A stretch of 64,000 nt of DNA. Origin: Tubulanus polymorphus (Eukaryota; Animalia; Nemertea). Made by a program: the position numbers and the translations under genes. Positions 4,984-31,619 of the stretch are shown in pieces. The stretch lies in the NCBI RefSeq assembly GCF_964204645.1, contig NC_134032.1, forward strand, positions 2,476,416 through 2,540,415, given 5' to 3'. The notes below the pieces were generated by a model. It was not told where the DNA came from and did no database searches. It saw only the letters and a program-made list of their open reading frames with translations. How positions within the stretch are numbered: position 1 is the first letter of the stretch; each line of letters begins with the position of its first letter.

Positions 4984-5391
4984 AGTAATAGGGGTTTAGT
5001 TGTTCTAGGCCAAAGGTCGAACGTAGAGCTCATTAAAAAACAAATATTCAAAGTAATTTAAAACTATAATATATTTTCATAGCCGTGTGCATTTTATATT
5101 ATAACTAGATATTTATTCTAAGATATTAATAATTTAAATTTTAAAAGCATATTGTATTAAATCAATTGGTCGCTCCGCTTCGGTACCGCTCCGCTCCGCG
5201 ACCAATTGATTTATTTACAATACACAAATTCATATAATCAAATATATTCAAATAATAATAAATATTCTATTATTTAACTAAAATACACACGGCTATGAAA
5301 ATATATTATAGTTTTAAATTACTTTTAATATTTGTTTTTAATGAACTCGACCATTCAACCTTTAACCTAGAACAACTAAACCCCTATTACT
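4984..5391. repeat. Left terminal imperfect palindrome (408 bp) of the small element
   Basis: 4984 AGTAATAGGGGTTTAGTTGTTCTAGG pairs with CCTAGAACAACTAAACCCCTATTACT ending 5391; apical stem ATCAATTGGTCGC/GCGACCAATTGAT at 5161-5210. Confidence 0.93.
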
Positions 5392-5504
5392 CTTAAAATA
5401 TTCATATATATGAATAACATATAAATTGATAGATTATTCAATATAAAAGTAAAACGAATAATTAACGAGCTCTTATAGAATAGATATATAGATATATTTT
5501 AAAC

Positions 5505-5885
5505 ATATTTCAATATTTATATTTGTATGAGTTAGATTTTTAAACATAAAAAATGTGGGTAAAGTGTGAGTGAAATAATTCATATTTAAATCATTGAATA
5601 TTTATATTTATATGTGTTAAATTCTTGATTTTTAAACATTAAAAGTGTGAGTAAAGTGTGAGTGAAATAATTCATATTTAAAACAGTTAATATTTATATT
5701 TATATGTGTTAGATTCTTCTTTTTAAACATAAAAAGTGTGAGTAAAGTGTGAGTGAAATAATTCATATTTAAAACAGTGAATATTTATATTTGTATGTGT
5801 TAGATTCTTATTTTTGAACATAAAAAGTGTGAGTAAAGTGTGAGTGAAATAATTCATATTTAAAACATTGAATATTTATATTTGA
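5505..5885. repeat. Subterminal tandem repeat, ~4 copies of ~90 bp
   Basis: Unit contains AATATTTATATTT..AAAAGTGTGAGTAAAGTGTGAGTGAAATAATTCATATTTAAA. Confidence 0.9.
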
Positions 5886-6560
5886 ATGAGTTTTAATAAA
5901 AATTTTGTTATAAAAATGAAGAAAGAAGAAGAACCCAACTTAAAAATCGAAATCAATCAAACTAATAAATCATTTTCACAGTTTAACATTAGAAATTATA
6001 TTTCAGCAACAAATTTTGTGTCCGCCAGACATTATAAAATCGATAACATAACTATGATTAATCAAATATTATCAAATGAAATTTATTTAATTACTGAACT
6101 AGTAGATACTTTTGATAATGGCGTTAAAAATCCTAAATTGTTCAATACAGTTTTAAATTTTAAAGGAACTTCAGATGAAAACATAATAAATATTCTTAAA
6201 ACTCCTTTCAATGAAAGAAATGATGATATAATACTTTCTAAAGATTACAATGATTTGATTAACTTAAGAATTGAAAAAAGACAATTATATTATTTCAATT
6301 ATGATAATAAACAAACTATCTATAATGAAAATTCATCAAATATTGGTATTCAATGTGAATTAGATAATGAAAAATCATATATATATATATCAGATATTGC
6401 AGTTCAATGTTATTTAGATGTTGAATTTAGAAAATTCAATCCTATTGAAAAAGTGTATTGTTATTGCAGCGGCAAATATTTAAGATCACATAAATCAAAA
6501 CATTATCAAACAGTTAAACATATCAATTATGAAAAGAATAATAAATATATATTGAAATAA
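5886..6560 (+). CDS. Hypothetical protein with C-terminal Zn-finger-like motif (start may be the ATG at 5916)
   Basis: Intact 224-aa ORF; C-terminal CYCSGKYLRSHKSKHYQTVKH; decayed homolog at ~37570-38117. Confidence 0.7.
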   Translation: MSFNKNFVIKMKKEEEPNLKIEINQTNKSFSQFNIRNYISATNFVSARHYKIDNITMINQILSNEIYLITELVDTFDNGVKNPKLFNTVLNFKGTSDENIINILKTPFNERNDDIILSKDYNDLINLRIEKRQLYYFNYDNKQTIYNENSSNIGIQCELDNEKSYIYISDIAVQCYLDVEFRKFNPIEKVYCYCSGKYLRSHKSKHYQTVKHINYEKNNKYILK

Positions 6561-6718
6561 GAGTATGTTTCAAATATAAAGTAGTTAAAGCATCGAGAAA
6601 TTAGTTTAATAAATAACTGTTAGGTAGTAAGTTTAATTGTTATTTGATTTGAAACATATAAAACTTATTTCTAAAATATTAAATATTTATCAATTTAATA
6701 ATTTTTTTTCTTAAATAA

Positions 6719-6937
6719 ATGGATGGTTTCATTCCAACTGGGAAAAGTGATTTGAAGCATTATCTTGTAGCAGGAGGATTAATATTGGCAGCATTATATT
6801 TTTACTATGAGAATTTTTCAAAAGATTTGATATATGAAAATAATAAATTAAGTAAAAAATTAAAGAAGTTAAAAGGAAACAATCACAGAAATAAAAAGAA
6901 TAAAAAATGTAATTTAGAAAATGATTTAGAGGATTAA
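6719..6937 (+). CDS. Small membrane protein with basic tail
   Basis: YLVAGGLILAALYFYY hydrophobic helix; preceded by T8-CTTAAA-TAAATG; decayed homolog at ~43020-43170 on the minus strand. Confidence 0.65.
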   Translation: MDGFIPTGKSDLKHYLVAGGLILAALYFYYENFSKDLIYENNKLSKKLKKLKGNNHRNKKNKKCNLENDLED

Positions 6938-6976
6938 AACAGCATCTTTTAATTTCATATATTTTGACTATAAAAA

Positions 6977-7269
6977 TGAGTGAAAATATATTAAACTTAT
7001 TACATCTATATATAAAAATCAACAGAATATTAAATCAATTATTATGCTTACAGGTTTATTTTCATTCTCAGTTCATACTACAAAACAGTTGTTAACAATT
7101 CTATGATTGCTGTAAAATTAGATACACTGAATTAATAGAAAATATAAATTATATTTCAGATAGATAGAATAATATTAAATGCTGTGAAGTATGTAATAAA
7201 AGATATAAAAATTTAAAGAGTTTAAAAACTCATAAATATATTCATGAATTTCTTGTTAAATCTATTTGA
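6977..7269 (+). pseudogene. Disrupted small ORF (MSENILNLLHLY...)
   Basis: Frameshifted homolog of the 42784-42969 ORF MSDNILNLLHLIYRNQEDIKLIIMISGLLS. Confidence 0.55.
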
Positions 7270-7316
7270 ATTCTAGTCAATTCTTGTTAACCAATAGCGT
7301 GACTAGAATTCAAATA

Positions 7317-7530
7317 GAGCGGAGCGGCAGCGAAGCGAAGCGACCAATTGATTTAATACAATATGCTTTTAAAATTTAAATTATTAATATCTTAGAATAA
7401 ATATTTAGTTATAATATAAAATGCACACGGCTATGAAAAAATATTATAGTTTCAAATTACTTTTAATATTTGCTTTTTAATGAGCTCGACCGTTCGACCT
7501 TTGGCCTAGAACAACTAAACCCCTATTACT
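7317..7530. repeat. Right TIR of the small element (outer arm plus apical loop only)
   Basis: Reverse complement of ~4984-5197; preceded by a separate 19-bp-stem hairpin at 7261-7318. Confidence 0.88.
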
Positions 7531-8121: not shown

Positions 8122-8698
8122 AGTAATAGGGGTAATGGGCTTTCAGGCCAAAGGTCGAACGGTCGAGCCCATTAAAAAACAAAATATTAAAAGTAATTAA
8201 AAAACTATAATATATTTTCATAACCGCGTGCATTTTATATCAAAACTAAATATTTATTCTAAGATATCAATAATATAAAAAGCATATTGTATTAAATCAA
8301 TTGGTCGCTCCGCTTCGCCACCGCTCCGCTCCGCGACCAATTGATTTAATTACAATACACAAATTCAAATAATCAAATATATTCAAATGATAATAATTAT
8401 TCTATTATTCAACTGAAATGCACGCGGTTATGAAAATATATTATAGTTTTTTAATTACTTTTAATATATGTTATTAATGAACTCGATCATTAAACCTTTA
8501 GCTTGAAAGCCCATTACCCCTATTACTCTTAAAATATTCATATATATATGAATAACATTTAAATCATTGAACTTCTAAAATCAATTTTAATAAAAAATAT
8601 AGTATTAAAATGGAAGCAAATAAGTACTACTGCCCAACATGTAATATCGATATAGATAAATCCCAAAAAGCAAGACACAATAAAACTAGAACACATTT
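8122..8698. repeat. Left TIR, containing a 406-bp hairpin (8122-8527) and a copy of the first ~26 PolB codons (ATG 8610)
   Basis: Reverse complement of 25923-26488; differences seen are one substitution, a 5-nt indel in the apex and a 7-nt indel at the inner edge. Confidence 0.95.
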
Positions 8699-9744
8699 GT
8701 TTTTAGTCCAGTTGGTTAAAGCAAAGACATTTATCGAATTAAGGAACTCAACACATAGTGAAAAATATGTTGAATCGTTATAAACACCCGATAATACTCA
8801 GCTATATAGTTGGTTGTATTAGCTCCAGTAAACATATGTTACCAGCTTATATTTCAATTGTAAAGAGTTAATTAATTTCATTGATCTAAATGCCTTTATT
8901 ATTGATTTTTTTTCCAACTTCAACGCGTTGTGTATACGGCGAACGTTAGCGAATCACAAATCTCATAATTTACAAGTCTCAACACGCTTGTTCTAGATGT
9001 TTTTACTAGAAAATGATTCTATTTTAACCTATATACATTCAATGTACAGAGCTATAGAATAAATCTATAAATTCACAGCTGTTACAGTTGTTACTATAAC
9101 GACGAGACATTATTACACGTCATAATCAGAAACGTGTAGAATATTCTAGAACCGGAACTAGATGACGTGGCATAATCAACGACGTGTCATTCTAGAAATC
9201 GCCCCGGAAATGGATATACGCTGTAATATTGTGCTCAGGATATTCTATCTTTCGAAACGAAATAAGGAGTTTATAGTTTACAATTATAAATCTAAATGTA
9301 AGTACTGTTTGTTGTAGTTATTAAGGCTATTAAATACGAAACCTTTAAATATATTTAAGTGTATTTAGTATATCTTTTAGATAGTTAGAGTTACCGCTAA
9401 TATCTTTTAGATTAATAAAACGCCATACGCATCAAGAAGTGATAGAGAAACTCAAGATACTCTTTCTGACTGAGGAATCAACAGCAATGGATATCAAATC
9501 AATAGAAATTAGCACAAGAAACACAAGAATCACCAAAAGATCGTCGAAGAAACTATATAAGAATTTCAAAAACATTAAGACTCCAATGATTAAGTTTAAC
9601 ATTTGTTGATGTAGTTAAATATTTACCAGCAATTGAAAAAATGTTTGTAATTATAAATTGTATTTATAGAAATCAAATGATGTATTGGAAGAAACGGCCG
9701 AACAACTTGTATAATGTATTGTGTAAATCTGATTGATGAATTTT

Positions 9745-10084
9745 TATGTTCGGTCGTTTCTATTCAGAATGAATATATAATTATGATTAGCGCATGCGCA
9801 TTAAGCAAAAGCGCTCCTATAAGAGCGGTTTTGCCTAATGCGAACACGTTTAGATATTTTATGTCGGTCGTTTCTATTTACATAATTATATATTCATTAT
9901 GTAAATATAATTATGATTAGCGCATGCGCATTGATCAAAAACGCTCCTATAAGAGCGGTTTTGCCTAGTGCACATGCGTTTGAATTTTCTATGTTCAGTT
10001 GTTTCTATTTCACAGAATGAATATATAATTATGATTAGCGCATGCGCATTAAGCAAAAGCGCTCCTATAAGAGCGGTTTTGCCC
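9745..10084. repeat. Three ~120-bp tandem units, each with GCGCATGCGC and a small stem-loop
   Basis: AATTATGATTAGCGCATGCGCATT..CAAAA(G/A)CGCTCCTATAAGAGCGGTTTT; GCGCATGCGC at 9790, 9920, 10038. Confidence 0.9.
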
Positions 10085-10222
10085 AGTGGTATTATTTAGA
10101 TATCAAGGAATCGAAACAACTTATCAAAAGCAGCGAGGAATGAAAAAGGATGACGTTGATCGAAGAAATGGAAGAGGATTCTAAAATTATTAACCGATTT
10201 AGTAAAAAAATACGTATAATAA

Positions 10223-10888
10223 ATGGAACCAGAACAACCACAAACTATCAATATTACAAATAACACTGGCGTTATAAACATATATTACAAGAAATGTTCT
10301 AAATGTGAATTAGATAAATCATTAACAGAATTTAGTAAGCGTAAGATTAGCAAAGATGGTTTTCAATATTGCTGTAAAACTTGTACTAAACTATATACCA
10401 AACAATATCGAGAAGATAATATAGAACATTATAATTATTATATGACAAAATATATGAGAAAAAGACATCAAACAGATCTTAATTTTAGATTGAAACAATG
10501 CTTAAGGTCTAGATTAACACAATTATTCAACAAAGAAACACATTCAGAAACACTATCTAATTTGTTGGGTTGTTCAGATGAATTTCTCAAATCATGGATT
10601 ATATTTCAATTCGATGATAAAATGAATATAGATAATTATGGGGATTATTACCACATTGATCACGTGTTACCAATATCTAAATTTAACATGAATGATGAAT
10701 ATAATAAAAAACTTATTTGGGGTTGGAAAAATTTAAGACCTTTAGAAAAGAAAGAAAATCAAACCAAATCTAATAAACTAGATTTACAGTTATATTTAGA
10801 ACAGTTAACAAAAGCAAAGAAATTTATTGATCAATGGAATAATAATCCAAATAATGAACAATACGTTGAGTTTTTAATGAGTGGTTAA
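10223..10888 (+). CDS. HNH-family endonuclease of the type seen in large DNA viruses
   Basis: N-terminal KKCSKC..EF..DG..CKTC Zn motif; YHIDHVLP..NLRPL..KENQTKSNK HNH motif. Confidence 0.8.
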   Translation: MEPEQPQTINITNNTGVINIYYKKCSKCELDKSLTEFSKRKISKDGFQYCCKTCTKLYTKQYREDNIEHYNYYMTKYMRKRHQTDLNFRLKQCLRSRLTQLFNKETHSETLSNLLGCSDEFLKSWIIFQFDDKMNIDNYGDYYHIDHVLPISKFNMNDEYNKKLIWGWKNLRPLEKKENQTKSNKLDLQLYLEQLTKAKKFIDQWNNNPNNEQYVEFLMSG

Positions 10889-11113
10889 AGAATAATATAT
10901 CTCAAATAAAATATAATAAAAATTACATACCTTCAACTATCTATTATTTCTATTTTAATTTTTAATATTTTCTTTTCAAAAAAGAATACTTTATATCACA
11001 AATAAAAAATACTAAAAAAACAATAACTAATACTAGAATTCTTAAGCTTTAACTAGCTAGTATCATTTGAAGAATACTTATAATACTATTCTTATTAAAT
11101 TTCTCTAATATAA

Positions 11114-11719
11114 ATGTCTAAGAAATCGAATAAGAATAATATTTAAGTTGAAAAAACTTTGGAAGATTTAGGTCTAACAGATGATAATGATAATGTGGCA
11201 ACTAAATGTGATAATAAAATTGATAACAATATTGATTACGAGTACTATTTATATTGTAAGCATCATCTAGAACTATTGATTGCGAGTGGAAAAACTAAAG
11301 AGTTTATTGGTAAAACAATAACTTTTCAAGAATTAGATAATATGAATAAAGAAAAAGTAATCAAATATTTTAAGATTTATGAAGAGTCAAGGTTAGCTAG
11401 AATAAATGATTCTATTTCAGATGGTATTATCAAATGTTATTCAAAATTATGTAACCAGTTAATACCAATTAATGATGAAAATAAATTATATAATGATTTG
11501 AAAAATGACTATTTAGTTATGACTGAATTACAAAAATGGGTTGGATATGCTTCATTCCAATTAGGATCGGTTATGACATTGATTTCTACTGGAGTTATAA
11601 CATTTTCGAACATCAAACCTATGGAATATAAATCAGGTAAGAACGAAACAGATGTACTACAACAAAACGTCGAAACAGAAAATGAATCAGAACAAAAATT
11701 AACTAAAATAAATGAGTGA
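11114..11719 (+). pseudogene. Conserved Maverick hypothetical protein with a premature stop at 11144-11146
   Basis: TAAATG start at 11114 is in frame with the 11159 ORF; homolog at 31620 reads through this position (VPIEKTLDDLG vs I*VEKTLEDLG). Confidence 0.75.
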
Positions 11720-12074
11720 TGGAGTTAAGAAAAAGGCTAGATCCGAGAAACAAATTAAATGGGCAAGAGAATTAGGTAAAAGATCTTCAGAATTAAAAAA
11801 AGCTAAGAAAAAGAAATTAACCGATATAAATGAATCACCTGGTATTGATTCAAATAATAATCCATCTAATAGATTCAGCACAGCTGAATCTCATAATTAC
11901 TTATATATTACAATTGGGTTAATCACAATTATTATATTCTCCGGTGTAATATATAAATCAAAATTCAAATCTGATGATAAAGATGATTCCAATGATGATA
12001 AACCTATTATACCAGAAAATAAATCAAATCATAAATCAAATGAAAATAAATCTAAAATATTATTAATGGATTAA
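11712..12074 (+). CDS. Basic single-TM protein
   Basis: RSEKQIKWARELGKRS basic N-terminus; YLYITIGLITIIIFSGVIY hydrophobic helix; TAAATG start. Confidence 0.75.
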   Translation: MSDGVKKKARSEKQIKWARELGKRSSELKKAKKKKLTDINESPGIDSNNNPSNRFSTAESHNYLYITIGLITIIIFSGVIYKSKFKSDDKDDSNDDKPIIPENKSNHKSNENKSKILLMD

Positions 12075-12077
12075 AAT

Positions 12078-13166
12078 ATGATGAAAAAAGAACAATATTT
12101 AAGAGATTTATATTATAACCCAGAAAGTGAAGTATCATTTTCCAACGTTTCAGAATTATGGAATAAAATTAAATCTGATAAAGAAAAAATAAAATATAGT
12201 GAATTAAAATCATGGTTACAAAATCAACCCACATATCAAATTCATAAAAAGATGGATAAAAAATATTTAACAAGAAAAGTAATGGTTTCATATATCGATC
12301 AACAATGGCAAGCAGATTTAATTGACATGAAAAACTTAGAAGAATATAACAAAGGATATTTCTGGATACTAAATGTTATAGATATATTCAGTAGATACGC
12401 ATGGAGTATCCCGATTAAAAATAAAACTGGTATAGAAGTAACAAATGCTTTTAAATCTATATTTAAAGAAGCTATTCCAGATAAGATACAATTTGATGAA
12501 GGTAAGGAATTTTATAACAAACATTTTAAAAAACTATTAACTGATAACGATGTAGAATATTTTTCAACACATTCAGATAAAAAAGCATCTGTTATAGAAA
12601 GATTTAATAAAACATTGAAAACTAGAATGTGGAAATATTTCACCGCTAATGAAACATATAAATATATCGATGTGTTAGATGATTTAATGAAAGGTTATAA
12701 TAATTCTAAACATAGTTCTATAAATATGAAACCTATACAAGCTAGAAAAGAAGATAATTCAGAAATAGTTTGGAATAATTTATATGGAGCATTTGTTACA
12801 CATGATTTTGGAGAACCTAAATTTAAAATAGGACAACATGTTAGAATTTCTAAATATAGAAAAACATTTTATAAAGGTTATACCCCTAATTTTACAGAAG
12901 AAATATTTAAAATTAAAAAGATAATATTAACTAAACCATTTGTTTATAAATTGTTTGATTTAAAAGATGAAGAAATATTAGGTTATTTTTATGAACAAGA
13001 ATTATCATTAGTACCAAATCCAGATGATATAGAATACAAAATAGAAAAAGTATTGAAAACAAAAACTCTTAAAGGAAAAAAGTATTCTTTGGTGAAATAT
13101 AAAGGATATGATGATAAATTTAATGAATGGATTTTATCTAGTAAAATTAAAAGAATAAATGAATAA
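12078..13166 (+). CDS. Retroviral-like (rve) integrase with C-terminal chromodomain
   Basis: WQADLID, VIDIFSRYAW, QFDEGKEF, IERFNKTLK (D,D,E); YKIEKVL..VKYKGYDDKFNEWI chromodomain. Confidence 0.96.
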   Translation: MMKKEQYLRDLYYNPESEVSFSNVSELWNKIKSDKEKIKYSELKSWLQNQPTYQIHKKMDKKYLTRKVMVSYIDQQWQADLIDMKNLEEYNKGYFWILNVIDIFSRYAWSIPIKNKTGIEVTNAFKSIFKEAIPDKIQFDEGKEFYNKHFKKLLTDNDVEYFSTHSDKKASVIERFNKTLKTRMWKYFTANETYKYIDVLDDLMKGYNNSKHSSINMKPIQARKEDNSEIVWNNLYGAFVTHDFGEPKFKIGQHVRISKYRKTFYKGYTPNFTEEIFKIKKIILTKPFVYKLFDLKDEEILGYFYEQELSLVPNPDDIEYKIEKVLKTKTLKGKKYSLVKYKGYDDKFNEWILSSKIKRINE

Positions 13167-13773
13167 AGATTTATTTATATTTGAACCACATAATATGTTA
13201 ATAACTGGAGTTACGAATTGTGGTAAAACACACTTCATATTAGATTTATTAGAAACTATTTATAAGAATCATTTTAAAAATATAATATTATTCTGTCCTA
13301 CTTATGAAATGAATGAAACGTATAATAGAGATATAGTTTTTAAAGATAAAAAGTTTATTATATTAAATTCTAAAACAGTGAAAGATAATTTAGATAATTG
13401 TATAAAAATTGCATTAGATATTTATAAAGGATCAAATACATTATTTATTATTGATGATTGCGCAAATTTACATGATTCTAAAATTAGAGAAAGTGAGTTA
13501 TGTTATTTAGCTTTCTCTGGTAGACATTTTGGGATAACAACTTGGGTTTTAAATCAGAAATATAATTCAATTGTGAAAGATTTTAGAGAGAATATAAGAT
13601 TTCTAGTTTTATTTTATAACAAAGATAGAAAATCTATGCAACAATCATTGGAAGAAAATCAAATTATACCTCCTGAATTACATGATGAATATATGAATAA
13701 ATTAAAAAATAATAAAGGTTCCAAATTACTTATGAGATTACAATTTCCATATGAATATAAATTTATAAAATAA
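13159..13773 (+). CDS. A32/FtsK-like DNA packaging ATPase
   Basis: Walker A GVTNCGKT, Walker B FIIDD, GRH motif, LNQ. Confidence 0.93.
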   Translation: MNKDLFIFEPHNMLITGVTNCGKTHFILDLLETIYKNHFKNIILFCPTYEMNETYNRDIVFKDKKFIILNSKTVKDNLDNCIKIALDIYKGSNTLFIIDDCANLHDSKIRESELCYLAFSGRHFGITTWVLNQKYNSIVKDFRENIRFLVLFYNKDRKSMQQSLEENQIIPPELHDEYMNKLKNNKGSKLLMRLQFPYEYKFIK

Positions 13774-13785
13774 AATCCTAATTCA

Positions 13786-14316
13786 AAATATTATAGAATT
13801 CACTGTATATTGATGGATGAGTGGATGAATTGGATGAATCGGATGAATTGGAAGAGTGGATGAATTGGAAGAGTGTAATAATATATAATTTACATATGAT
13901 TTTTATTTTTAAAACAGTAAGAGTTTGATTTGAAGATGTCATATAATAATAAATATATTTTTATAAAATAATAAAATGACAGATAATAAATGTCATATAA
14001 TAATAAATATATATTTATAAAATAATAAATAATAAAATGATAAATAATAAAATGATAAATAATAAATATATTTTTATAAAATAATAAATAATAAAATGAT
14101 AAATAATAAGTGTCATATAATAATAAATATATATTGTGTTAAATTTAATAAAGAATAAAAATATTATATTTATACTCATACTATTCTTCCAATTTATGTG
14201 TTAAAAAGTAAAATATATATATTATCATACTCATCCACTCTTCCACTCACCCAATTCATCCAACTCTTCCAACTCATCCATTCATCCATCAATATACAGT
14301 GAATTCTATAATCTTT
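13786..14316. repeat. Inverted-repeat-bounded AT-rich spacer between convergent gene blocks
   Basis: ATTATAGAATTCACTGTATATTGATGGATGA (13790-13820) and its reverse complement (14282-14312), each followed inward by GGATGAATT/GGAAGAGT arrays; centre has ATAATAAA repeats. Confidence 0.88.
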
Positions 14317-15397
14317 TTAATTTTCATTTTCATATTTTTCTTTAAGCTTATTGTATTCTAAATATATATCCCTTTGCATTATCTTTGATATAAGTCCTAA
14401 ATGATTCCCAAATTTATATTTATTGAATGTTTTTCTTGAAAATATTTTTGGAATATAATTTTCGATTTCAGTTTTAGATGGATGTTTATTTAAAAATTCT
14501 CTAAAATCATCATATTCAAGTTCAAATAAGTTCATTGCATAACTTACATTTGGTTTAAAGTTATCTAACTTTTTCAATATGGTAACTATATCATTACTCA
14601 ATAAATAATGTATAATTGTTTTTCTATACCACCGATAATCTAATATATTATTATTATTAAATTTTGGATTTATAACTGTTGGATCTTCTATTACATTATC
14701 TGTACCAATATGTTTAATTGAGTATTTAATAATAATTTAATTATTTCAATTGTTTATCATATATTACATATTCTTTACATTTTTCACACCAAGATTTAAA
14801 TACTTTTATTGCATGGGCTGAATCATTTCCACTTTTTGTTTTTAATTTATAATGTTTTGCCCAATTAGCCTTTGTTATACATTCATTACAGAAAGCACAA
14901 TAATTCTGATCCTCTTTACATTTATCTTTATATATATTGGCATATGTTTTTACTAATTGTAAAATATGTTCATCTTTTTTGATGTGTAATAAATAATCAT
15001 TGTAATTATCAAAATCTTCTTCACAATACATACATCTGATGTTATCTTTTGGTTGAACATTTGATTTTTCTATTTTAGGTTCAATATTATGTTCTATTTT
15101 TGTTTCAATCTTATCATCATTCGATGTAGAAGGTATAACATTATCTTCTATTTTTGTTTCAATATTATCTTCTATTTTTGTTTCAATATTATCTTCTATT
15201 TTTGTTTCAATATTATCTTCTATTTTTGTTTCAATATTATTATTACGTTCAATTAAATATTCTTTGTATTGATTTAATTCATTTAATAAAAATGTTCCAA
15301 TATATTCATTTATTCTTTTATAAGGTATTACATAATACAAATCATCATTGATTTCTTTATCAGCTTTGATTCTTTCATATACTTTACCTCCTTCCAT
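14317..15397 (-). CDS. Zn-finger protein with IETKIEDN repeats; ORFs 14741-15397 and 14317-14601 are probably one gene broken near 14740
   Basis: CMYCEEDF..HIKKDEH and CAFC..HY C2H2-like motifs; 24-nt tandem repeat; the downstream frame is open from 14736 without its own ATG. Confidence 0.6.
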
Positions 15398-15429
15398 TTA
15401 TTATATATATTTTTATTAAAGTTAAAATT

Positions 15430-16677
15430 CTAATACATAACACTATCTAATTGTGAATTTACAATATTTAATTGCGCGTCAGATATAATATAAATGTGCA
15501 TTTTAAAATTTTTGATTCCCTTTTTCTTTGTCATGAATAATTGTATTCCATCCTTTGTATTTTGTAATTTTTTCCCAGAACCATGTAATGAATTATCTTC
15601 AGTTGTTCTAAAATCTAACCATAATGCAAATTTATTACCGGTATAATAATCAATTTGATTAATGTTACAATTTTCAAATGATTTTATTTTTTCATTCATA
15701 AAATGTTTTCTAATTTCTGGCCATTGATCTATCATTCTCATTCCTTGACAAAATATTTTATTCGCTATACCTTCGATAGTTATTTCTACTTTTGTTATTT
15801 CAGGATTATAATAATTGTCAACATTTATTGCGCCATTAGTATACGTTCCAATAGTAAAAAATATTAATATACCTTTAATAGATCTTCTAGGAAAGTTAAT
15901 ATTCTCATTTATTATTTCATCATTTGCATTAATAGTTACAGTTTTAAATTTATCAATATAATCATATAATAATGAAAATCCTTGATTGTATTTAGTTTGA
16001 ATTATACTTGAAATATTTTCATCAGTTACTGTATCATATTCTAAACATATATTCGATAATTTATAACTCATATCTTTATTAACGCTAGATAATACAATTT
16101 CATTTACAGGAGCAAATGTTATCTCAAATATAATATCTTCTTGAATTGCGTATTTATATAAAGGTGCATTATTATTTATCAATTCAATGTCTAATGGAAT
16201 TTTATATTTGCTTCCATATATACTTTTTATCAATTTATCTACATCATTTGTTAATATTGCGCTATTAGCTTCTGATCTTAATTTATTTTGGTTTTCTGAT
16301 TGGATGCCTTGAAATATCATATTATTTCTATTTTCTTTAGTTAACCATAAATCTTTATAATGCATAAATAAATTATAATCATCTAATGAGAAAACTGTTT
16401 GTGGACCAATCTTTATTGTTAACTTTTTAATCAAATATCTTCCAACATTATCAACAACATAATTATTATTATTACCGATTACTTTTATATCAGCTGATAA
16501 ATAAATACTGTTTGGAACGTAAAAAGTATTTTGTGTTAATCTAGGAATTCTAACGTATAAAGTTTCATCGGGATTAATATTTGAAGGGTTATGAGTAATT
16601 ATATGATGTGATCTTTCTGCTTTAATAGCATTAGATATTCTATGATTCTTCGAAGGACTTATATAACTCCCACTCAT
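15430..16677 (-). CDS. Probable major capsid protein (double jelly roll)
   Basis: Intact 415 aa, beta-rich pattern (LYVRIP, YLSADIKV, IKKLTIKIG, YKLSNICLEYD, ININFP..IKGILIFF, ITKVEITIEG, FALWLDF); size and context fit a Polinton MCP. Confidence 0.72.
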   Translation of the reverse strand: MSGSYISPSKNHRISNAIKAERSHHIITHNPSNINPDETLYVRIPRLTQNTFYVPNSIYLSADIKVIGNNNNYVVDNVGRYLIKKLTIKIGPQTVFSLDDYNLFMHYKDLWLTKENRNNMIFQGIQSENQNKLRSEANSAILTNDVDKLIKSIYGSKYKIPLDIELINNNAPLYKYAIQEDIIFEITFAPVNEIVLSSVNKDMSYKLSNICLEYDTVTDENISSIIQTKYNQGFSLLYDYIDKFKTVTINANDEIINENINFPRRSIKGILIFFTIGTYTNGAINVDNYYNPEITKVEITIEGIANKIFCQGMRMIDQWPEIRKHFMNEKIKSFENCNINQIDYYTGNKFALWLDFRTTEDNSLHGSGKKLQNTKDGIQLFMTKKKGIKNFKMHIYIISDAQLNIVNSQLDSVMY

Positions 16678-16748
16678 TTATTTAACAAAAAAATTAATTA
16701 TTTATTTTTTGATATCATGGTTTACTTGATATTTTTTGATATCATGGT

Positions 16749-18440
16749 TTACTTGATATTTTTTGATATCATATTTACTAAACCAAAAATAATAGCACTT
16801 ACAACTGTAATTAAAAATAAAATAATATGTTCAGCAGCAAAGTTAATAATGTTTCCTGCAGATTTCAATATAAAACCAACAATTGAAGCAATAACTCCTG
16901 GTAAAGCTGCAGCAGATTTTTTAGATAGTTCCCATAAATATTTTGCTAATTTCTTTAAACCATCTTTAACTTTATCTTGTATAGAATTATTACCTGGGGG
17001 TTTATCCGGTTTATTTGGAGTAGGAGTAGATTTCAAAGCATTTGATATTGCTAAACCAATTGTTGTAAATAACATAGTTACAGCTGTTACAATTGAAAGA
17101 ATTGTTATTCCTTTTAACTTAAATAATAACTTTATTCTGTCTTTTAATGATATTTCAGAATCTGGTTTAATCAACAAATCTTTAAAAATAACTTTTAATT
17201 TTTTAATATGATTAAGATCATATGATTTTAATAATATATCTCTTTCTTCTTTTTGTAATTTTATGTTATATTCTAAATCATCTATTTCTTTTACTAAAGC
17301 TAACTTTCTGCTTTCAAAATCAGCTTCATAAACTACTTGATGATTTCTATTTAATTCTAATTGTTTTAATTCTTCATCTACATTAACTAATTCTTTTTCT
17401 AACATGGTTATTTTAGAAAATCTCATCTTAATATTAGCAATTTCATCAGCTGATACTTGTATACCTTTAATTTCTCTACGTATTTGTTCAGGAAATGCTT
17501 CTAATTTTTCATCGGTTAAATTAAGAAATCCTTTTTCTAGTAAATATTGCAGTCGATTTATTCCAGTTTCAGAACCAGATGTATCTGATATACTATTCAT
17601 CAGTTCTTCTGAATCTCTTAATCTATCAATTTGTTTTTCTAATTGTAATTTACTTGAATCATTATCAATTTGTTGAGTGTCTCTTCTCGATGTTTCGGGT
17701 GTTGAAGATCTCAATCTATCTAATCTATCTCTATTGTCTTCCATTTCTGGATCAAAATCAGTAGGATTTGGATTTTTAAATGGTGAATATTTGTTTATAT
17801 CAATTTTAGGAATTGGTTCTTCTTCATTTACTCTATCGAGTGCATTCCATATAATTCTGAGAAATTCTCTACCACCTTTTGAATTTTCAATTGTAGATGT
17901 TGCTCGCATTTCAGGTTCAAAAATATTTTCTTGACCCATTTTAGATAATTGAATTGTTACAATATTCCTATTTAAATCAAGATTATAATACCATGCATCA
18001 TTTTTAAATTCTAAATTATTTGTGAAATATGGGTCATCTTTAAAAATTTGTTCTACAACATCTTCAGTATCAATTTCATCTATTACAACTGATGGTAATA
18101 ATTCGTTAACAATTGTATCTGTTACTCTAGATTTCATTTTGAATAATTTCATAGGTTTATCAGGATATTTTTCTTGTTCTTTTACTAATAGTTTCATAAA
18201 TTCTTTTCTTTCTCTTCTAGTTGTAATTCTACCCCTTTCAGGAGCTTCTAAATATTTATTTATTTTTTCACGTAATTCGGGATCATCATCATCATCATCT
18301 TCACCTAAATTAGTATTATATGCTGATTCATCATCATTATCAATATTAGCACCTGCATCATTATAATCATCATCAATATATCCTTCATTATTATTTCCCA
18401 TTTCTCCCATTTCATAATCTTCTCCACCTTCTACATCCAT
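16749..18440 (-). CDS. Large protein with acidic N-terminus, coiled coil and C-terminal hydrophobic/amphipathic helices
   Basis: Intact 563 aa; GITILSIVTAVTMLFTTIGLAI, LPGVIASIVGFIL, IILFLITVVSAIIFGLV. Confidence 0.85.
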   Translation of the reverse strand: MDVEGGEDYEMGEMGNNNEGYIDDDYNDAGANIDNDDESAYNTNLGEDDDDDDPELREKINKYLEAPERGRITTRRERKEFMKLLVKEQEKYPDKPMKLFKMKSRVTDTIVNELLPSVVIDEIDTEDVVEQIFKDDPYFTNNLEFKNDAWYYNLDLNRNIVTIQLSKMGQENIFEPEMRATSTIENSKGGREFLRIIWNALDRVNEEEPIPKIDINKYSPFKNPNPTDFDPEMEDNRDRLDRLRSSTPETSRRDTQQIDNDSSKLQLEKQIDRLRDSEELMNSISDTSGSETGINRLQYLLEKGFLNLTDEKLEAFPEQIRREIKGIQVSADEIANIKMRFSKITMLEKELVNVDEELKQLELNRNHQVVYEADFESRKLALVKEIDDLEYNIKLQKEERDILLKSYDLNHIKKLKVIFKDLLIKPDSEISLKDRIKLLFKLKGITILSIVTAVTMLFTTIGLAISNALKSTPTPNKPDKPPGNNSIQDKVKDGLKKLAKYLWELSKKSAAALPGVIASIVGFILKSAGNIINFAAEHIILFLITVVSAIIFGLVNMISKNIK

Positions 18441-18456
18441 TTACATAATAAAAAAA

Positions 18457-19845
18457 TTAAAATTTAAAATATAATATTCCTCCGATTACAATTCCTATAC
18501 AAGTTATAACTAATTTAGTATTTTCATGGGATTTATTATCATCATTTAGTTTAATTATATCATGTTGAATTTTATCAGTTTTTATATTTTCTGATGTATT
18601 GTAATCTTTTATTTTAGAATCATTATCCAATTTAATATTCTTAGTTTTAGTTTCTGTTGATTGAATGTGTTTTTTATTTTTTTCACCTTCCATTAATTTT
18701 GGAGCAGTAATAATCTTTTTATTTATATCATTTAATCCAAATGAATTATTTATTGTTGCAGTTTTAATTAGATTATTATAACCAATTATGTTTCCCATCT
18801 TTAATACTAAATCATTAGAAATAATTAATAGATTAGGGCCTATACAATAATTAAGTCTTACATGAGATTTATCTAAATAATTTTGATATCTTATAATGTT
18901 TTCTGGAATCGATCTATTTTTATCATTATGTATGGAATCTTCAAATAAAACTTTAAATTGTTTTTGTGTATCGAATGATGTATTCAAATTTCCAATTATC
19001 GGTGATCTTGTTTCAACTTGTGATCCTAGAATACAAATCAAATAAGTTCTAATAGATTGATTTATTCTTTCTATACCTGATTTAGTAAAACCTTCACTAT
19101 TTTCTAAAATAAAATAAACCCAACCATTATTGTTTTCTTGTTTTAAATTATCATAAAATTTTGGTAATTTATTGAAATTTAATGTTTCTAAATCCTTTGT
19201 TTCTATTTTACCATAACCTAATTTATTATTATAGATATTATAAAAACTATTAGATGTTATGGGAAGTGCACAATATTCTGCAATCTTTTTAGGGCAAGGA
19301 AGTGATCTTAATGTTCCAATTTTTGTTCTAAAATCAGAATTATTTATATCTATATTAAATTCATTGCAAATTTTATAAAACTTAGATAAATTAATATTAT
19401 TATCTAATTCTTTAAAATATCTAGATCCTGGTAAAGCACACTCTAATTCATTTAATATTATTCTGATTTGAAAGTATGTATGAAATCTAAATAAACTTTG
19501 AATTAGTTTATATTTAGAATTATTCAAATGATCATTCCAACTAATTCCACATCCTGTTGTTGCACAATAAACAGCAAAATTTAATTGGTTCTGCCAATAC
19601 TTCATATTAGATTTTAATAACCATTGTTTTTCATCTTTCAATTTTTTAAAATTAATTAAATATACATGAAATATATTTTCCATCTTTGCATTAAAATTAT
19701 TAGTTTCAGTAACATAAATTTCTAAATTAGTTAATGAATCTAAAACTTCATTTCTATATGTAATATCTTTATTAAAATCTATTGCTGGAATATTATATTT
19801 AATTAATTTATTATATCGGAAAGCTTTTGGAAAACTATCTACCAT
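18457..19845 (-). CDS. Hypothetical protein with C-terminal TM anchor
   Basis: Intact 462 aa; WQNQLNFAVYCATTGCGIS; ends LVITCIGIVIGGILYFKF. Confidence 0.85.
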   Translation of the reverse strand: MVDSFPKAFRYNKLIKYNIPAIDFNKDITYRNEVLDSLTNLEIYVTETNNFNAKMENIFHVYLINFKKLKDEKQWLLKSNMKYWQNQLNFAVYCATTGCGISWNDHLNNSKYKLIQSLFRFHTYFQIRIILNELECALPGSRYFKELDNNINLSKFYKICNEFNIDINNSDFRTKIGTLRSLPCPKKIAEYCALPITSNSFYNIYNNKLGYGKIETKDLETLNFNKLPKFYDNLKQENNNGWVYFILENSEGFTKSGIERINQSIRTYLICILGSQVETRSPIIGNLNTSFDTQKQFKVLFEDSIHNDKNRSIPENIIRYQNYLDKSHVRLNYCIGPNLLIISNDLVLKMGNIIGYNNLIKTATINNSFGLNDINKKIITAPKLMEGEKNKKHIQSTETKTKNIKLDNDSKIKDYNTSENIKTDKIQHDIIKLNDDNKSHENTKLVITCIGIVIGGILYFKF

Positions 19846-19861
19846 TTATATAACTAAAAAA

Positions 19862-20296
19862 TTAATAATTTGTTAATTCTTTTAATAATTTATCTTGTTC
19901 TTCAACTGTTATATGACCATTTAAACTTATTATATAATCTAGTGTGTTCTTTAATTTATTAATTTCTTTTATATTAGTTTTGATTTTTTCTTTATTACTT
20001 TTTATATTTAATTTTGAACTTATACCAGTTAAAACACTTGAACTTAATCCTAATACACCAATTGATATAGCTAAAGGTGTTAATGGACTGAATATTGCTA
20101 GAAATGTTATTACAGAACTAATTGTAACCGAACCACTTATAATCAAATAATATATAATTTTACTTTTTAAATATTTTTTCTTTTTTATCTTTAAGTCACT
20201 TTCAAATTCTAATATTTGTTTTTCTAAATATGTTTTTAATTTAGTTTTATTTATATCATGAGGAATAATATCAATACTATCAACTTTATCTTCCAT
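19862..20296 (-). CDS. Two-TM hairpin protein
   Basis: 144 aa; two hydrophobic segments between helical charged regions; TAAATG start. Confidence 0.8.
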   Translation of the reverse strand: MEDKVDSIDIIPHDINKTKLKTYLEKQILEFESDLKIKKKKYLKSKIIYYLIISGSVTISSVITFLAIFSPLTPLAISIGVLGLSSSVLTGISSKLNIKSNKEKIKTNIKEINKLKNTLDYIISLNGHITVEEQDKLLKELTNY

Positions 20297-20315
20297 TTAT
20301 TTAGAATAAAAATTA

Positions 20316-20738
20316 CTAATTAGTAAACTTATAAGCAACAAATATAACAATAACAGTTCCGCCTAAAATCCAAATTATTTCATATTTCTGTTGTTCTTTA
20401 CTTGGGGTATAATAATCTGATAATTTGGGTTTGTATAGATGTAATTTTTCTTTATTTGTTACTGTGTTATATAAACTCATTGCATCATCAACTGATTGAA
20501 AATCTCTATGTGAAATCTTCTGATTATATAATTCTTTATTGATGTAATCCATATAGTTTTGTCTCTTTTCTCTATATTCTTCTGCAGCTTTATTGTATTT
20601 CTCTAACGCTAAGTTATGTCTTCTTTGTTCTCCTAATGAACTATTTTTATCAATATGTTTAAATAAATAACCACCACCAGTAAATGCTAAAGCGTTAACA
20701 ATTGCCGATCCTATAATAGTTATAATTGCAGAAGCCAT
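20316..20738 (-). CDS. Small protein with N- and C-terminal hydrophobic helices
   Basis: MASAIITIIGSAIVNALAFTGGGYLF..IIWILGGTVIVIFVAY; TAAATG start. Confidence 0.82.
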   Translation of the reverse strand: MASAIITIIGSAIVNALAFTGGGYLFKHIDKNSSLGEQRRHNLALEKYNKAAEEYREKRQNYMDYINKELYNQKISHRDFQSVDDAMSLYNTVTNKEKLHLYKPKLSDYYTPSKEQQKYEIIWILGGTVIVIFVAYKFTN

Positions 20739-20762
20739 TTATTTAGCAAAAAAATTATGCAT

Positions 20763-20984
20763 TTATATGGGAGGAATATATTTTTGTTTTTCCAAATAAT
20801 CAATAGTTAAATTAGATAAAGTAACTGCTAATGTTAACTTTAAAATATCATTTATATCAAATCTATCAACATTAACACTTCCCATTTTGAATACTTTTTT
20901 TAATACCATTGAATAACCAACAGTTCCAACTGATAGTAATGCGCCATTATATAATCCAGTTATTATCCACTTATTATCACTCAT
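20763..20984 (-). CDS. Small hydrophobic protein
   Basis: 73 aa, tightly packed between neighbours, T7-GATAAA-TAAATG start. Confidence 0.75.
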   Translation of the reverse strand: MSDNKWIITGLYNGALLSVGTVGYSMVLKKVFKMGSVNVDRFDINDILKLTLAVTLSNLTIDYLEKQKYIPPI

Positions 20985-21620
20985 TTATTTATCAAAAAAA
21001 TTACTATCATCAACATATTTAGTTATCTTAGTGATGATTATTTGAACATTTATTTCATTACTAGTTTTATGATTATCATATATTTTGGATAATATGTTTT
21101 TAATATCACCAATAATTCCATCTTCATTTAATTCATAATATTCTAAAGGTGATTTAATTAAATCAATTACTTTTTCTATATTATACTTTTCTTTATCAAT
21201 CATTGATGCATTGTTAAATGATTTACTTTTTATATCAGTAATTACATCATTTAGTTTAATTCTCATTTCTTTACCATGTTTAAAATCAAACCCAAAACAT
21301 ATACTCGGTCCAACAGTTGCACCCATTTTCAACCGAGCTCTTCTATTAATTTCTTGAGCTAATGTTTCTAAATTATATAATCCTGGTTTAAGATAAAGAT
21401 GAAACCATTTACTTTTATTTCTATCATGAATTAAAAAGACTCTATGTTCAATAGACTTATCTGATACATTGTAAAAAGAATTACATAAACTTATATTTAC
21501 TAATTTTAAATCAACACAATTTTTGAATTCTCTGTCTAATTGTACTAGTAAATTATGTGATTTATAATTTGTAAGTTTTCTAGAATCTACAAATATTCTG
21601 TATTCTTTTAATTCCGCCAT
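20985..21620 (-). CDS. Possible minor capsid (penton-like) protein
   Basis: N-terminal IFVDSR..VQLDREFKNCVDLKLVNISLCNSFYNV and LKPGLYN resemble single-jelly-roll minor capsid N-termini; short for a penton. Confidence 0.5.
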   Translation of the reverse strand: MAELKEYRIFVDSRKLTNYKSHNLLVQLDREFKNCVDLKLVNISLCNSFYNVSDKSIEHRVFLIHDRNKSKWFHLYLKPGLYNLETLAQEINRRARLKMGATVGPSICFGFDFKHGKEMRIKLNDVITDIKSKSFNNASMIDKEKYNIEKVIDLIKSPLEYYELNEDGIIGDIKNILSKIYDNHKTSNEINVQIIITKITKYVDDSNFFDK

Positions 21621-21637
21621 TTATTTTACATATTTTC

Positions 21638-21979
21638 TCATTCGAAATCTATTTCATGGTGCCCTTTTTCATTCTTACCTTTGTATACGAAATAGAAATC
21701 TCCAGAACATAATTCTTCTAGATCTTCACTTGATAATCTATGAAATCTATCTGGTAAATAAGTTCTGAATTTATATTTATTTCCTTTTAATCCTTCATAT
21801 TCTAAATGAATTACTAATTTATCTCCATATTTATTAGTAATTGTTTCAATGTTAGTAATTAAATATTTCTTGTGAATTGTTTACTCAGTTAGTTTTTTAA
21901 ATTTATAATCTACAGATTTGACGCTTGAAGTATCTTTAATCCTATCTAAGAATTCACTGTGTACTTGTTTACTCTCCAT
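21638..21979 (-). pseudogene. Small conserved Maverick protein (possibly OB-fold/SSB-like), one in-frame stop
   Basis: MESKQ..FKKLTE*TIHKKYLITNIETITNKYGDKLVIHL..TYLPDRF..YKGKNEKGHHEIDFE; TAAATG start; homolog at ~32395-32660. Confidence 0.65.
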
Positions 21980-22007
21980 TTATTATACACATTTTTATTG
22001 AAATTGA

Positions 22008-25000
22008 TTAACACGCTAGAATCCTTTTCATAATCTCATTTTCTTTTGTTTCTTCTCTTTTGAATTTTATATATTCATCTAAATTGCAACCATAGGCGAC
22101 TGTGTGGATTCCATCATCTAAAATATATCTTTTATCATCAAATGGGTTTAGACTTATCTTCTCTATCTCTTCAATATACATTTCATGATCTTCAGATCTT
22201 AAACATTTCATCTTATGTTTTCTAACTTCTTCATTAAATATACAATTGATGTAATCTTTAAAATGAATATTATTTTCTACTACACTTTTGGTTATTCCTT
22301 TTAACTTTTTAGCTTCATGTTCTTTAGTTTTATAACTATACATTTTAGATCTAATACCAATGAACTCTATCATTTCTTCACCGCCTAATTCATCCTTAAA
22401 CTTCCCAGGAACTTTTTTATTATCATTGATAAACAATTCATGATCTTTAGGATAGTTACTGAAATCAAAATGATGATTTAATATTTTTAAATCACCAGTT
22501 ATGTTATCACTTTTTATCTTTAATATGTAAGAATCTGTATCTAGATATAAGATTTCTATATTTTTTTTCCCCAAAATGGGGTTGCAATACATTATAATAG
22601 AATTCATACATCAATAGCTTTGAAATTTCTAAAACTGCAGCTCCAACATAAATAGGTTTATTGAACTTCATAGAAGTTCCTTTTAATTTAACTGCTGCTA
22701 AATTTTCATCGAATATTCTATTACCTATAAATTTCGGATACGATTGTAAATGTCTAATTCTTTTACCATTACTAACTAACTCAATATCATTTCTATTTCT
22801 TATGTTTTCACATGTTTTTCCATAGAACGCATTATTCATTAGTTTAAAGTAATCTTTTTCAAAATCAGTTTTAGCTTCAGTTCTCTGTGTAGTATTAAAA
22901 TCTATAAATTTTTCTAACCACTTAGATTGATTAAATGAAATATATCTATGTACTTTTTTTAATATCATTCCTTGATTCAAATAAAACTTCAACATTCTAT
23001 AATGTACTACATAATTATATTTATCTTCTTGAGTTACCATTAACTTTTCAGTATGAATATGATTATCGGGTTTAATTCTTTTTTGATAATTTGATAATTC
23101 TTCATGTTTAACAATTTTATGTTCGGGACAATATGCTAGATTTCTAGATTTGAATTTAATATTTTCGGGGTATTCTAAATCTACAACAAAGAAGTAACCA
23201 GTATCTGAATCATCTGCAATATCTAGGATTCTTTTCTTCCAATCAAATTTATCAATTTGTAAAACTTCAGTTATTTCAAACATCCCATAAGGTTGTGGTT
23301 CTATCATTGCCCAACCATAAAGATTATTTGCATCTATGTATAATAATTTATATCCAGGATTATCATTTACATTGAAATATCTATCACCCAATACACCTGA
23401 AACACCTCCTCTTATAGATTTTTCAAATAATAGTAATTGATCTATATTTGTTAACAAATCCATTTTTATATCTGTAAATTTTAATCCACAATCCCATGTT
23501 AATCCTGGTGATGAATAACAATGACAAGGATCAATATTGAAATATTTTAGGTTTACATCTCTAAACCTTTCAAATATATCGGTTAATAATAATACATCTG
23601 ATTTTAAATATAAATCTACTAATTGTCCATGATTTTTAATTTCAAAATGATTCCAAATATTCAATGTTCTATTATATACTTCATCTTTAACATATTCATT
23701 TTTTAATTCATCATAGAATTGTTCTTTCAATAATTCAGTTATTTTAAAATCATTATGATTTTTTAGAAAGAATATGGAATTGCGCCTTTACATCTCATTA
23801 ATTTTAAATCATCATAATTTGGGTAATATTCTTTTAATATCTTTAATTCATCATCAACTAATGATTTTGATAAGTTATCTAATGAACTATTTAAAAATCT
23901 ATATGAATCTATAAATCTTAGACAACCAAATTGGAATGATATATAATTCTCAGATGTTTTAGCTAACATTCTAAATTTATAAGTTGGTATTTTATCTTTT
24001 GATTTATTTGAATTTAATATTTCTATTTCATTATTAATTTCTTCTATTTTATGAAACAGTTGCTTAATGAATAAATGCGCGTCATACCCCGATAAATTGT
24101 GAAATATAATGGGGACAAAATTTACTTTTTTGGCTTGTAAATTGCAAGCCTCATGCGCTGCACCTCTAAATTTACCATTCAAATGATCGTGGTCTCTTAC
24201 TTTTTTATCTTTATAATTAAATATCTTTTCACAATAATAACATTTATCTGCAAACTCAAATTCTTCTTTATCTTCTTCTGTCATAATTATTTCTTTATTT
24301 GTATTCAATAATTTACTAAATCTTATTTCATATTCAATTAATAAGTCACAAAAATGATTGATAACATTTTCATTTCTATAATTATAATATTCACTTTCAA
24401 TTAGTTCTGGATAATCAGATTTTATATATAACCCGAAAGCTGCAGCTGATTGATGAATCTTTTTAATAGTATTTGTTTTTGGTGGTTCATCTGAATAATC
24501 ACTTTCATTAGAATTTAATTTCTTTCTTTTATAATATATATCTTTTCTATCTTTATCTGTTAATTCTTTATTCAATGATTCAAAATCTCCATATATTACA
24601 AATGGTACTTTATTTTTGTAATCATATTTTTTGAATTCTAATATTTTATCTTTTTCATTTGGTAAAACTAATTTACAATAATCATGATTATCACATAGTT
24701 GTTTATGATTTAATAATGTACTTTCATTACTGAATCTATGTAAACATTTTCTACATAGATATATTTTATGGTGATCATTTTCTGATTTGAAAAATAAATC
24801 GATTTGTTTAATCCACATATAATGATTTTCATAATATAGTATATCTATAACATCATTTGAATCATAATCTTTTGATAGGTATAAAGGTTCTAATGTATAA
24901 TGTTTAATATTATTTCCTTTTGTATTTGGTAATTTAATTAAATCAAATACATTTATTTTAAGATTATTATCTCTTTCTATTTTTGGAATATTTTTAATTC

Positions 25001-26005: not shown

Positions 26006-26488
26006 TTTAATACTATATTTTTTATTAAAATTGATTTTAGAAGTTCAATGATTTAAATGTTATTCATATATATATGAATATTTTAAGAGTAATAGGGGTA
26101 ATGGGCTTTCAAGCTAAAGGTTTAATGATCGAGTTCATTAATAACATATATTAAAAGTAATTAAAAAACTATAATATATTTTCATAACCGCGTGCATTTC
26201 AGTTGAATAATAGAATAATTATTATCATTTGAATATATTTGATTATTTGAATTTGTGTATTGTAATTAAATCAATTGGTCGCGGAGCGGTGGCGAAGCGG
26301 AGCGACCAATTGATTTAATACAATATGCTTTTTATATTATTGATATCTTAGAATAAATATTTAGTTTTGATATAAAATGCACGCGGTTATGAAAATATAT
26401 TATAGTTTTTTAATTACTTTTAATATTTTGTTTTTTAATGGGCTCGACTGTTCGACCTTTGGCCTGAAAGCCCATTACCCCTATTACT
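25923..26488. repeat. Right TIR with a 401-bp hairpin (26088-26488)
   Basis: 26088 AGTAATAGGGGTAATGGGCTTTCA pairs with TGAAAGCCCATTACCCCTATTACT ending 26488. Confidence 0.95.
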
Positions 26489-31590: not shown

Positions 31591-31619
31591 ACAACACAAC
31601 TAATTTGTTTGTTATATAA

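Follow-up and report, generated by a model that had tools for sequence, protein, structure and literature searches.

A fixed-orientation, imperfect terminal palindrome of about 400 bp at the ends of a Maverick element in the nemertean Tubulanus polymorphus

Animal Mavericks, also called Polintons, are described as elements whose TIRs span several hundred bp and which have a 6-bp target site duplication (TSD) and an AGT start and encode an rve integrase, a protein-primed family B polymerase (pPolB), an ATPase and a jelly-roll capsid (PMC8097293; for adintoviruses, PMC8502044). In the model of Polinton replication, the two TIRs pair with each other end to end (as cited in 10.64898/2026.07.28.741278). 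Neither 'hairpin' nor 'palindrom' occurs in the main text of PMC8097293 or PMC8502044, and the accessible portions of PMC11296320, PMC4061559, PMC6431247 and 10.64898/2026.10.13.758929 hold nothing on terminal hairpins of Polintons. Terminal palindromes have, on the other hand, been described in a bioRxiv preprint of July 2026 (10.64898/2026.07.28.741278) for endogenous virophages (subtypes 1, 2, 5 and 6) and a PLV (subtype 4) of the protist Halocafeteria seosinensis, where they lie inside the TIR next to the target duplications and hairpin priming was proposed. The palindrome of the subtype illustrated in that preprint measures 52 nt, the screen allowed at most 4 mismatches, and the replication genes of these elements are mostly of non-pPolB type. 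Further afield, poxvirus genomes carry AT-rich, incompletely paired terminal hairpins with kept mismatches, which arise by resolution and exist in two orientations, flip and flop (PMC8956199), while Streptomyces telomeres combine terminal-protein priming with a folded 3' end, truncated ends being repaired on a fold-back template (PMC5449611).

Here, we describe an element from Tubulanus polymorphus that agrees with animal Mavericks in size, TIRs, target duplication, AGT start and core genes, and differs from those of PMC8097293 and PMC8502044 in that a 400-bp palindrome opens each TIR, the terminal motif is AGTAAT instead of AGTAGT and an adenain-type protease motif was not recognised. With the Halocafeteria elements, which are related integrating viruses, it shares a palindrome within the TIR that adjoins the target duplication; in contrast to them, its palindrome is about 400 bp long and strongly imperfect with kept mismatches, and it belongs to an animal element whose pPolB has priming residues. 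The resemblance to the poxvirus telomere lies in the AT-rich, incompletely paired terminal hairpin and its kept mismatches, whereas the Tubulanus palindrome occurs in one orientation and is integrated as duplex. Streptomyces differs in being bacterial, with an internal origin, many short palindromes and the Tap/Tpg proteins (PMC5449611), so that this comparison is one of working principle only.

Identity and gene content of the element

The window is a stretch of 64,000 nucleotides of T. polymorphus DNA. In it, TIRs, target duplication and reads delimit an unstranded Maverick/Polinton element of 18,367 bp (8122..26488), whose 6-bp TSD occupies 8116-8121 and 26489-26494. The left TIR (8122..8686, plus strand) is about 565 bp long and 98.9% identical to the right TIR (25929..26488, minus strand), and the terminal AGTAAT is an imperfect form of AGTAGT. 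In line with the first-pass annotation, which had called this a Maverick, the TIRs and the 6-bp TSD are accompanied by an rve integrase with a C-terminal chromodomain (12078..13166, plus strand; Pfam rve E 2.5e-9, Chromo E 8e-5), an A32-type packaging ATPase (13159..13773, plus strand; Pfam Pox_A32 E 1e-13), a double jelly-roll capsid protein (15430..16677, minus strand; model pLDDT 86, with Foldseek matches to PBCV-1, iridovirus and mavirus capsids at E 9e-19 to 2e-11) and a pPolB gene (22008..26005, minus strand; four overlapping frames in the window copy). The element is thus a Maverick by every defining feature except the protease. No adenain/Ulp1-type maturation protease had a Pfam match among the element ORFs scanned, and a motif pattern, perhaps too strict, gave one short match in the element, within the capsid/accessory region, and no adenain-like frame in 8 related loci. 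Similarly, no family match to a Rep/HUH nickase or an A22 resolvase was found among the element ORFs scanned, in which the element differs from poxviruses and parvoviruses; its nuclease-type modules are instead two EndoVII/HNH-type domains, one in a stand-alone gene of 221 aa (10223..10888, plus strand; PHROG 1035 E 2e-18, with a weak Pfam HNH_4 match at E 0.03) and one inserted in the polymerase.

The right TIR includes the start of the polymerase gene, at a distance of 82 bp from the inner edge of the palindrome. Its frame breaks in the window copy near 25390, 23775 and 22560, and it matches the 1,190-1,250-residue polymerase frames of relatives. Features of the gene include a candidate linking serine, an OTU-type Cys and His, an exonuclease and the EndoVII-like insert, which is common in relatives. 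All 30 aligned polymerases have this serine, which follows a helix and precedes a strand-like stretch, and in 29 the next residue is Gly; the Cys and His are likewise invariant across the 30. All three fit the published description of the linking residue and vOTU, in which the EndoVII insert is regarded as a homing-nuclease invasion (bioRxiv 10.1101/2024.03.18.585575). The alignment therefore fits a polymerase that keeps candidate protein-priming residues, so the hairpin is no obvious substitute for a lost priming system. The structure model lends the terminal-protein fold no support, since the modelled frame starts inside the terminal-protein region, where pLDDT is under 50-60. A fold search with the N-terminal frame of the polymerase gave no match at E 0.001, the rows at E 0.1-0.8 being OTU proteases, B-family polymerases and one beta-beta-alpha nuclease, and a sequence search of solved structures returned nothing useful. 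In the left TIR, the first 26 polymerase codons are duplicated (8610-8783) and run into a short dead-end frame.

Several other features of the locus were recorded. A repeat of 104-130 bp occurs three times upstream of the nuclease gene (9761-10112), and every copy contains the palindrome GCGCATGCGC, which we take to resemble an NRF-1 site. Directly after the ATPase gene, between converging gene blocks, lies an AT-rich self-complementary stretch (13772-14330) with counterparts at the same place in close relatives (L003:9082-9359, L001:3743-3825 and L005:3183-3255); it is a candidate two-way terminator, and the palindrome in L003 is intergenic and no terminus. The large element itself sits in a repeat (7900-8121) with a read depth near 350. 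Elsewhere, the window contains a sister Maverick remnant with an ATPase and two further gene fragments (30728-32665), as well as rhodopsin-type receptor ORFs outside the 18,367-bp Maverick, which indicate an animal host.

Fold, variation and orientation of the terminal palindrome

The outer 406 bp of the left TIR (8122..8527; outer arm 8122-8308, loop 8309-8332, inner arm 8333-8527) and the outer 401 bp of the right TIR (26088..26488, with a loop 5 nt shorter) had been claimed to be self-complementary, and folding confirms this. Both form a single long hairpin, at -116.3 kcal/mol against -31 for shuffles (z -18.2) and at -120.2 kcal/mol against -32 (z -20.4), respectively, as does the left end of a small element of a second subfamily (4984-5391; -112.9 kcal/mol against -27, z -25.7), and for all three copies none of 100 dinucleotide shuffles folded as well. 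The 406 bp immediately inward of the left hairpin reached a z of -0.7 (10 base shuffles). The fold also bears out the layout that had been proposed, that is, a basal stem with mismatches, an AT-rich and poorly paired zone, an apical stem and a GC-rich loop. Counted from the terminal base, the stem begins with 24, 24 and 26 perfect pairs in the three copies, and in none of them does the pairing run continue outside the terminal base. In the left copy there follow a mismatch-rich zone (25-62), a near-perfect stem of 52 bp (63-114), the poorly paired AT-rich zone (about 51 versus 60 nt), an apical stem of 22 bp and a loop of 24 nt with 75% GC (19 nt at the right end), which adds up to 155 Watson-Crick pairs, 30 mismatched pairs and 12 gapped bases around the loop. 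The 3'-terminal strand folds better than the 5'-terminal strand by 5, 5 and 12 kcal/mol. Pairing of both ends with each other (-464 kcal/mol) is far more stable than two local hairpins (-237 kcal/mol), so the hairpin is possible only as a kinetic product. A single match to a known RNA family, at 25.7 bits against a gathering score of 81, was at chance level and rejected. A fold-back element of ~400 bp at 62531-62922, whose arms are long and imperfect, is unrelated and probably a MITE.

The small element (4984..7530, unstranded; 2,547 bp with its own 6-bp TSD) has the same kind of ends as the large one and none of the core genes. The first-pass annotation had ascribed to it the same layout, which holds for the left end, a full palindrome of 408 bp (4984..5391) with 87% identity to that of the large element, but not for the right end (7317..7530, minus strand), which consists of the outer arm only, breaks off in the apical loop and is joined to a separate short hairpin (about 7260-7316). 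The target duplication is intact although this end has no inner arm. Across the window, the hairpin is complete in three of four ends and has a single orientation in all four. Inside the small element, four 91-92-bp repeats (5494-5892) precede a 224-aa ORF (5886-6560) with no Pfam or PHROG match. Decayed relatives of its interior (67-78%) are found at 37550-38750 and 42219-43133; in the latter, 42219-42656 has 58-60-bp inverted arms with a homologue of the short hairpin 7260-7316 inside. The small element sits in another repeat (4740-4983), next to a frame that we take, from its motif, to be GIY-YIG-like.

We compared the left hairpins of the large and the small element, which share 155 pairs. 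Unchanged pairs account for 120 of these, 10 have changed on both sides and are still Watson-Crick, and 13 have changed on one side; mismatches make up the remainder, 11 kept unchanged and 1 altered on both sides. About 0.65 double changes that stay paired would be expected (Fisher p 8e-9), a value that overstates the case, since 8 of the 10 fall in one block (8134-8144), implying about three independent events, and since only two subfamilies enter the comparison. The near-perfect stems resemble each other most within an element: segment 1-24 is 100% alike between the arms of one element and 67% between elements, with a subfamily-specific block at positions 13-23 present in both arms, and in segment 63-112 likeness is 92-96% between the arms of a hairpin and 81-88% between elements. 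In the mismatch zones, likeness between the arms of a single hairpin is only 63-80% (25-62) and 55-60% (113-165), whereas between elements the outer arms are 90-95% and the inner arms 84% alike at 25-62, and 71-76% and 89%, respectively, at 113-165. Because stems group by element and mismatch zones by arm, the stems were made to match after the subfamily split and the mismatches are older, and a recent fold-back copy of the end as the whole story is rejected. Among the shared transition mismatches, all five place G-T on the 3'-terminal strand and C-A on the other, which has a one-sided chance of 1 in 32 and could also stem from mutational bias.

Reads of the same species extend this picture. 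We compared the left end with one raw DNA run, of which about 12% was read, and with three contig sets; the reads measure 150 bases and do not link the arms, so variant frequencies are unphased. Raw reads cover all bins, which supports the sequence across the palindrome and rejects an assembly artefact. Reads running off at 8122/8121 number 596 and 130, and their flanks agree only 34-40%, which points to many insertion sites; the empty site of the large element is represented by 177 reads. At 85% likeness, paired changes occur at well-matched frequencies in the two arms at 8132/8517 (24%/33%), 8137/8512 (35%/36%), 8199/8452 (50%/60%) and 8227/8424 (71%/72%), and a one-base deletion is likewise found in both (42%/51%), while partner frequencies are unequal at 8231/8420 (41%/71%) and 8148/8501 (26%/68%). 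Within the 40 of 92 variant rows listed, 25 positions fall in the basal stem. Fourteen of them make up seven partner pairs and one is neutral; at 5 the variant creates pairing where the window copy has a mismatch, and at another 5 it disrupts a pair and has no partner among these rows. The earlier claims that family-specific changes affect both arms and that the unpaired region is retained are thereby upheld, the first by the block at 13-23 together with the paired changes in the reads, the second by arm-specific mismatches that predate the split. As to the further claim that the fold is selected, the fold is maintained and its stems co-change, which arm-to-arm copying could also bring about, and the role in replication, resolution or packaging that had been put forward with it is hypothetical. 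Our data support a maintained fold rather than a one-off copy.

The inner arm is not universal. Read depth is 3,000-3,800 over the first 54 bases, 1,660-1,760 in the outer stem and about 1,380 at the apex, drops to 940-1,190 in the inner arm (55-70% of the outer arm) and is 1,670-1,830 inward of the palindrome, from which at least a third of ends would have no inner arm or have drifted below 85%. The first-pass annotation had regarded copies lacking this arm as evidence against its reading, and such copies exist to a degree, one of the four window ends being among them. Loose ends accumulate at 8178 (577 reads), 8179 (195) and 8493 (451), and these large groups show more diverged subfamilies. 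Twelve of the deletions listed have both breakpoints inside the hairpin, and 8 of these span the apex, with 3-16 reads each; go-back joints, a deletion outside the hairpin and one that extends beyond the TIR are not counted here.

An inverted hairpin would yield a strand switch at the stem base. No such switch is seen among 15 of the 16 joints in the first read comparison or among 15 of the 19 joints in the comparison at 85% likeness, which indicates one orientation; two switches inside the hairpin (7 and 4 reads), among the same 15 of 19, may reflect chimeric library molecules or a rare inversion of the hairpin centre. The parallel that had been drawn with poxviruses and with parvoviruses, whose terminal hairpins arise by hairpin transfer, therefore fails on flip/flop, as all four window ends are alike and no listed joint switches at the stem base.

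Among 80 metagenome loci, the five closest (70-76% capsid identity) stop short of an end. Ends are visible in only three, all distant (31-35% capsid identity) and all beginning with an AGT repeat, and none of these has an end-anchored hairpin of the 400-bp kind. L077 has 126-bp TIRs without a fold (z -2.2 and 0.8) and L038 no fold at its end (z 0.5), while L032, a complete element, has two stems within its TIR (L032:134-260, z -8.6), a perfect one of 24 bp that begins 134 bases from the end and a second, AT-rich one, so that neither is terminal. These data show the 400-bp form in a single host species. A capsid search of viral contigs gave no match, two stem motifs had 0 matches in viral and prokaryote contigs, and the 17-nt apical motif occurred at 4 viral loci, none similar to the TIR or to element genes.

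A proposed fold-back end in protein-primed replication, and the alternatives

As our preferred, still tentative reading, we propose that the fixed-orientation 400-bp palindrome may be a fold-back telomere, by which the end of a linear, protein-primed genome would be restored and repaired. It builds on what is seen directly, namely the palindrome, its register to the last base, the co-change of the stems, the kept mismatches, the single orientation and the residues proposed for priming. A single strand freed by displacement or excision would fold its 3' end onto the inner arm before the far end becomes available, and this folded end could serve as an on-the-spot duplex terminus for protein-primed initiation. 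The inner arm would also be the template from which bases trimmed off the terminus are made again, and this recopying would account for the homogeneity of the first 24-26 bases. With replication starting from the terminal-protein domain, each strand would be copied end to end, so that the palindrome would never be inverted, and the kept loops and mismatches may serve to melt the stem or to mark the end for a protein. Streptomyces telomeres provide a precedent for fold-back end repair with terminal proteins; against it, none is reported for replicons of the adenovirus or phi29 type (PMC5449611). For the end structure, we draw on integrated copies and short reads.

Hairpin self-priming shares the fold-back step with this repair and differs in the form of the free ends. 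Here, the folded 3'-OH would serve as primer for the second strand, the mode of parvoviruses and the one suggested for the Halocafeteria virophages, and a closed end or dimer junction would be opened asymmetrically, perhaps by the integrase or an EndoVII-type domain, to give one orientation. In its favour over fold-back repair, self-priming is what one would expect of a 3'-OH that sits at the foot of a perfect stem, and it is consistent with the exact register without a 3' flap, the better folding of the 3' strand, the two EndoVII/HNH-type modules and the existence of such a model (bioRxiv 10.64898/2026.07.28.741278). Symmetric hairpin transfer would, however, give the flip/flop that is absent from the listed joints; moreover, the polymerase retains its protein-priming residues, the element ORFs scanned gave no Rep/HUH match and the EndoVII insert, being common in relatives, has been read as homing-nuclease invasion (10.1101/2024.03.18.585575). 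Self-priming is therefore possible but rather unlikely in our view. Equally doubtful is a hybrid lineage, in which parvovirus/poxvirus-like hairpin ends start the second strand while a protein-priming polymerase is kept and the ends are opened one way.

The palindrome could also be a functionless by-product, an old fold-back duplication of the end whose arms were homogenised, by conversion or template switching, wherever they still paired. Arm-to-arm copying alone would produce double changes, and one end lost its inner arm with the target duplication still intact; the lower inner-arm depth and the absence of the structure from distant relatives point the same way, and accidental annealing is named as an alternative in the Halocafeteria preprint (bioRxiv 10.64898/2026.07.28.741278). 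Nevertheless, the mismatches 8149/8500, 8156/8493 and 8168/8481, each a single base flanked by pairs, survive in both subfamilies where copying should have erased them, the mismatches are strand-biased in five of five cases, and the hairpin persists in most ends in spite of its loss by deletion in host copies, the apex being spanned by most of the deletions listed. We thus regard this reading as unlikely.

A packaging or maturation mark, in which a virion or packaging protein recognises the loops and mismatches in the way of vaccinia I1 and I6, would agree with mismatch positions kept across subfamilies and with the capsid and A32 ATPase of the element, and vaccinia hairpin mismatches are needed for maturation and not for DNA synthesis (PMC8956199). 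An open duplex genome would, however, not display the hairpin, no binding protein was found, and the small element keeps the hairpin without capsid genes, an observation that does not separate the roles; such a mark seems quite improbable. Least probable is a function of the duplex itself, with the inner arm repeating, in inverse orientation, binding sites for proteins (those of an origin, the integrase or the polymerase promoter) and folding incidental, which would suit the perfect copy of the terminal 24-26 bases that ends the inner arm and the polymerase start 82 bp further inward, but leaves both the pairing up to a central loop with apical stem and the strand bias unexplained, with no solo 406-bp unit with its own target duplication (a fold-back MITE module) in the window and no loose read end at 8527 among the best-supported ones listed.

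Novelty and meaning for Mavericks

The first-pass annotation knew of no description of such a terminal hairpin in Polintons, a statement that must now be narrowed, as palindromes with a hairpin-priming model are described in 10.64898/2026.07.28.741278, though not in this form in the text of that preprint. The idea of a terminal palindrome is therefore not new in itself, and the form found here is a variant, set apart by length, kept mismatches, fixed orientation and protein priming. In the literature covered, we did not find the 400-bp length, the kept mismatches, the fixed orientation or the combination with protein priming that is retained, and the supplements of the preprint may list longer palindromes.

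Polinton replication has been modelled by analogy with adenovirus and phage, and such a model has no need of a cis-element like a long, kept, never-flipping terminal fold-back. The palindrome would give a testable handle on the replication of Mavericks. It extends the 2026 observation in protists to an animal element with a protein-priming polymerase, against the trend reported there, and could reveal a relation between hairpin-ended and protein-primed linear DNA viruses. If the hybrid reading were true, hairpin and protein priming would be combined in the lineage through which polintons are connected to adenoviruses and large DNA viruses.
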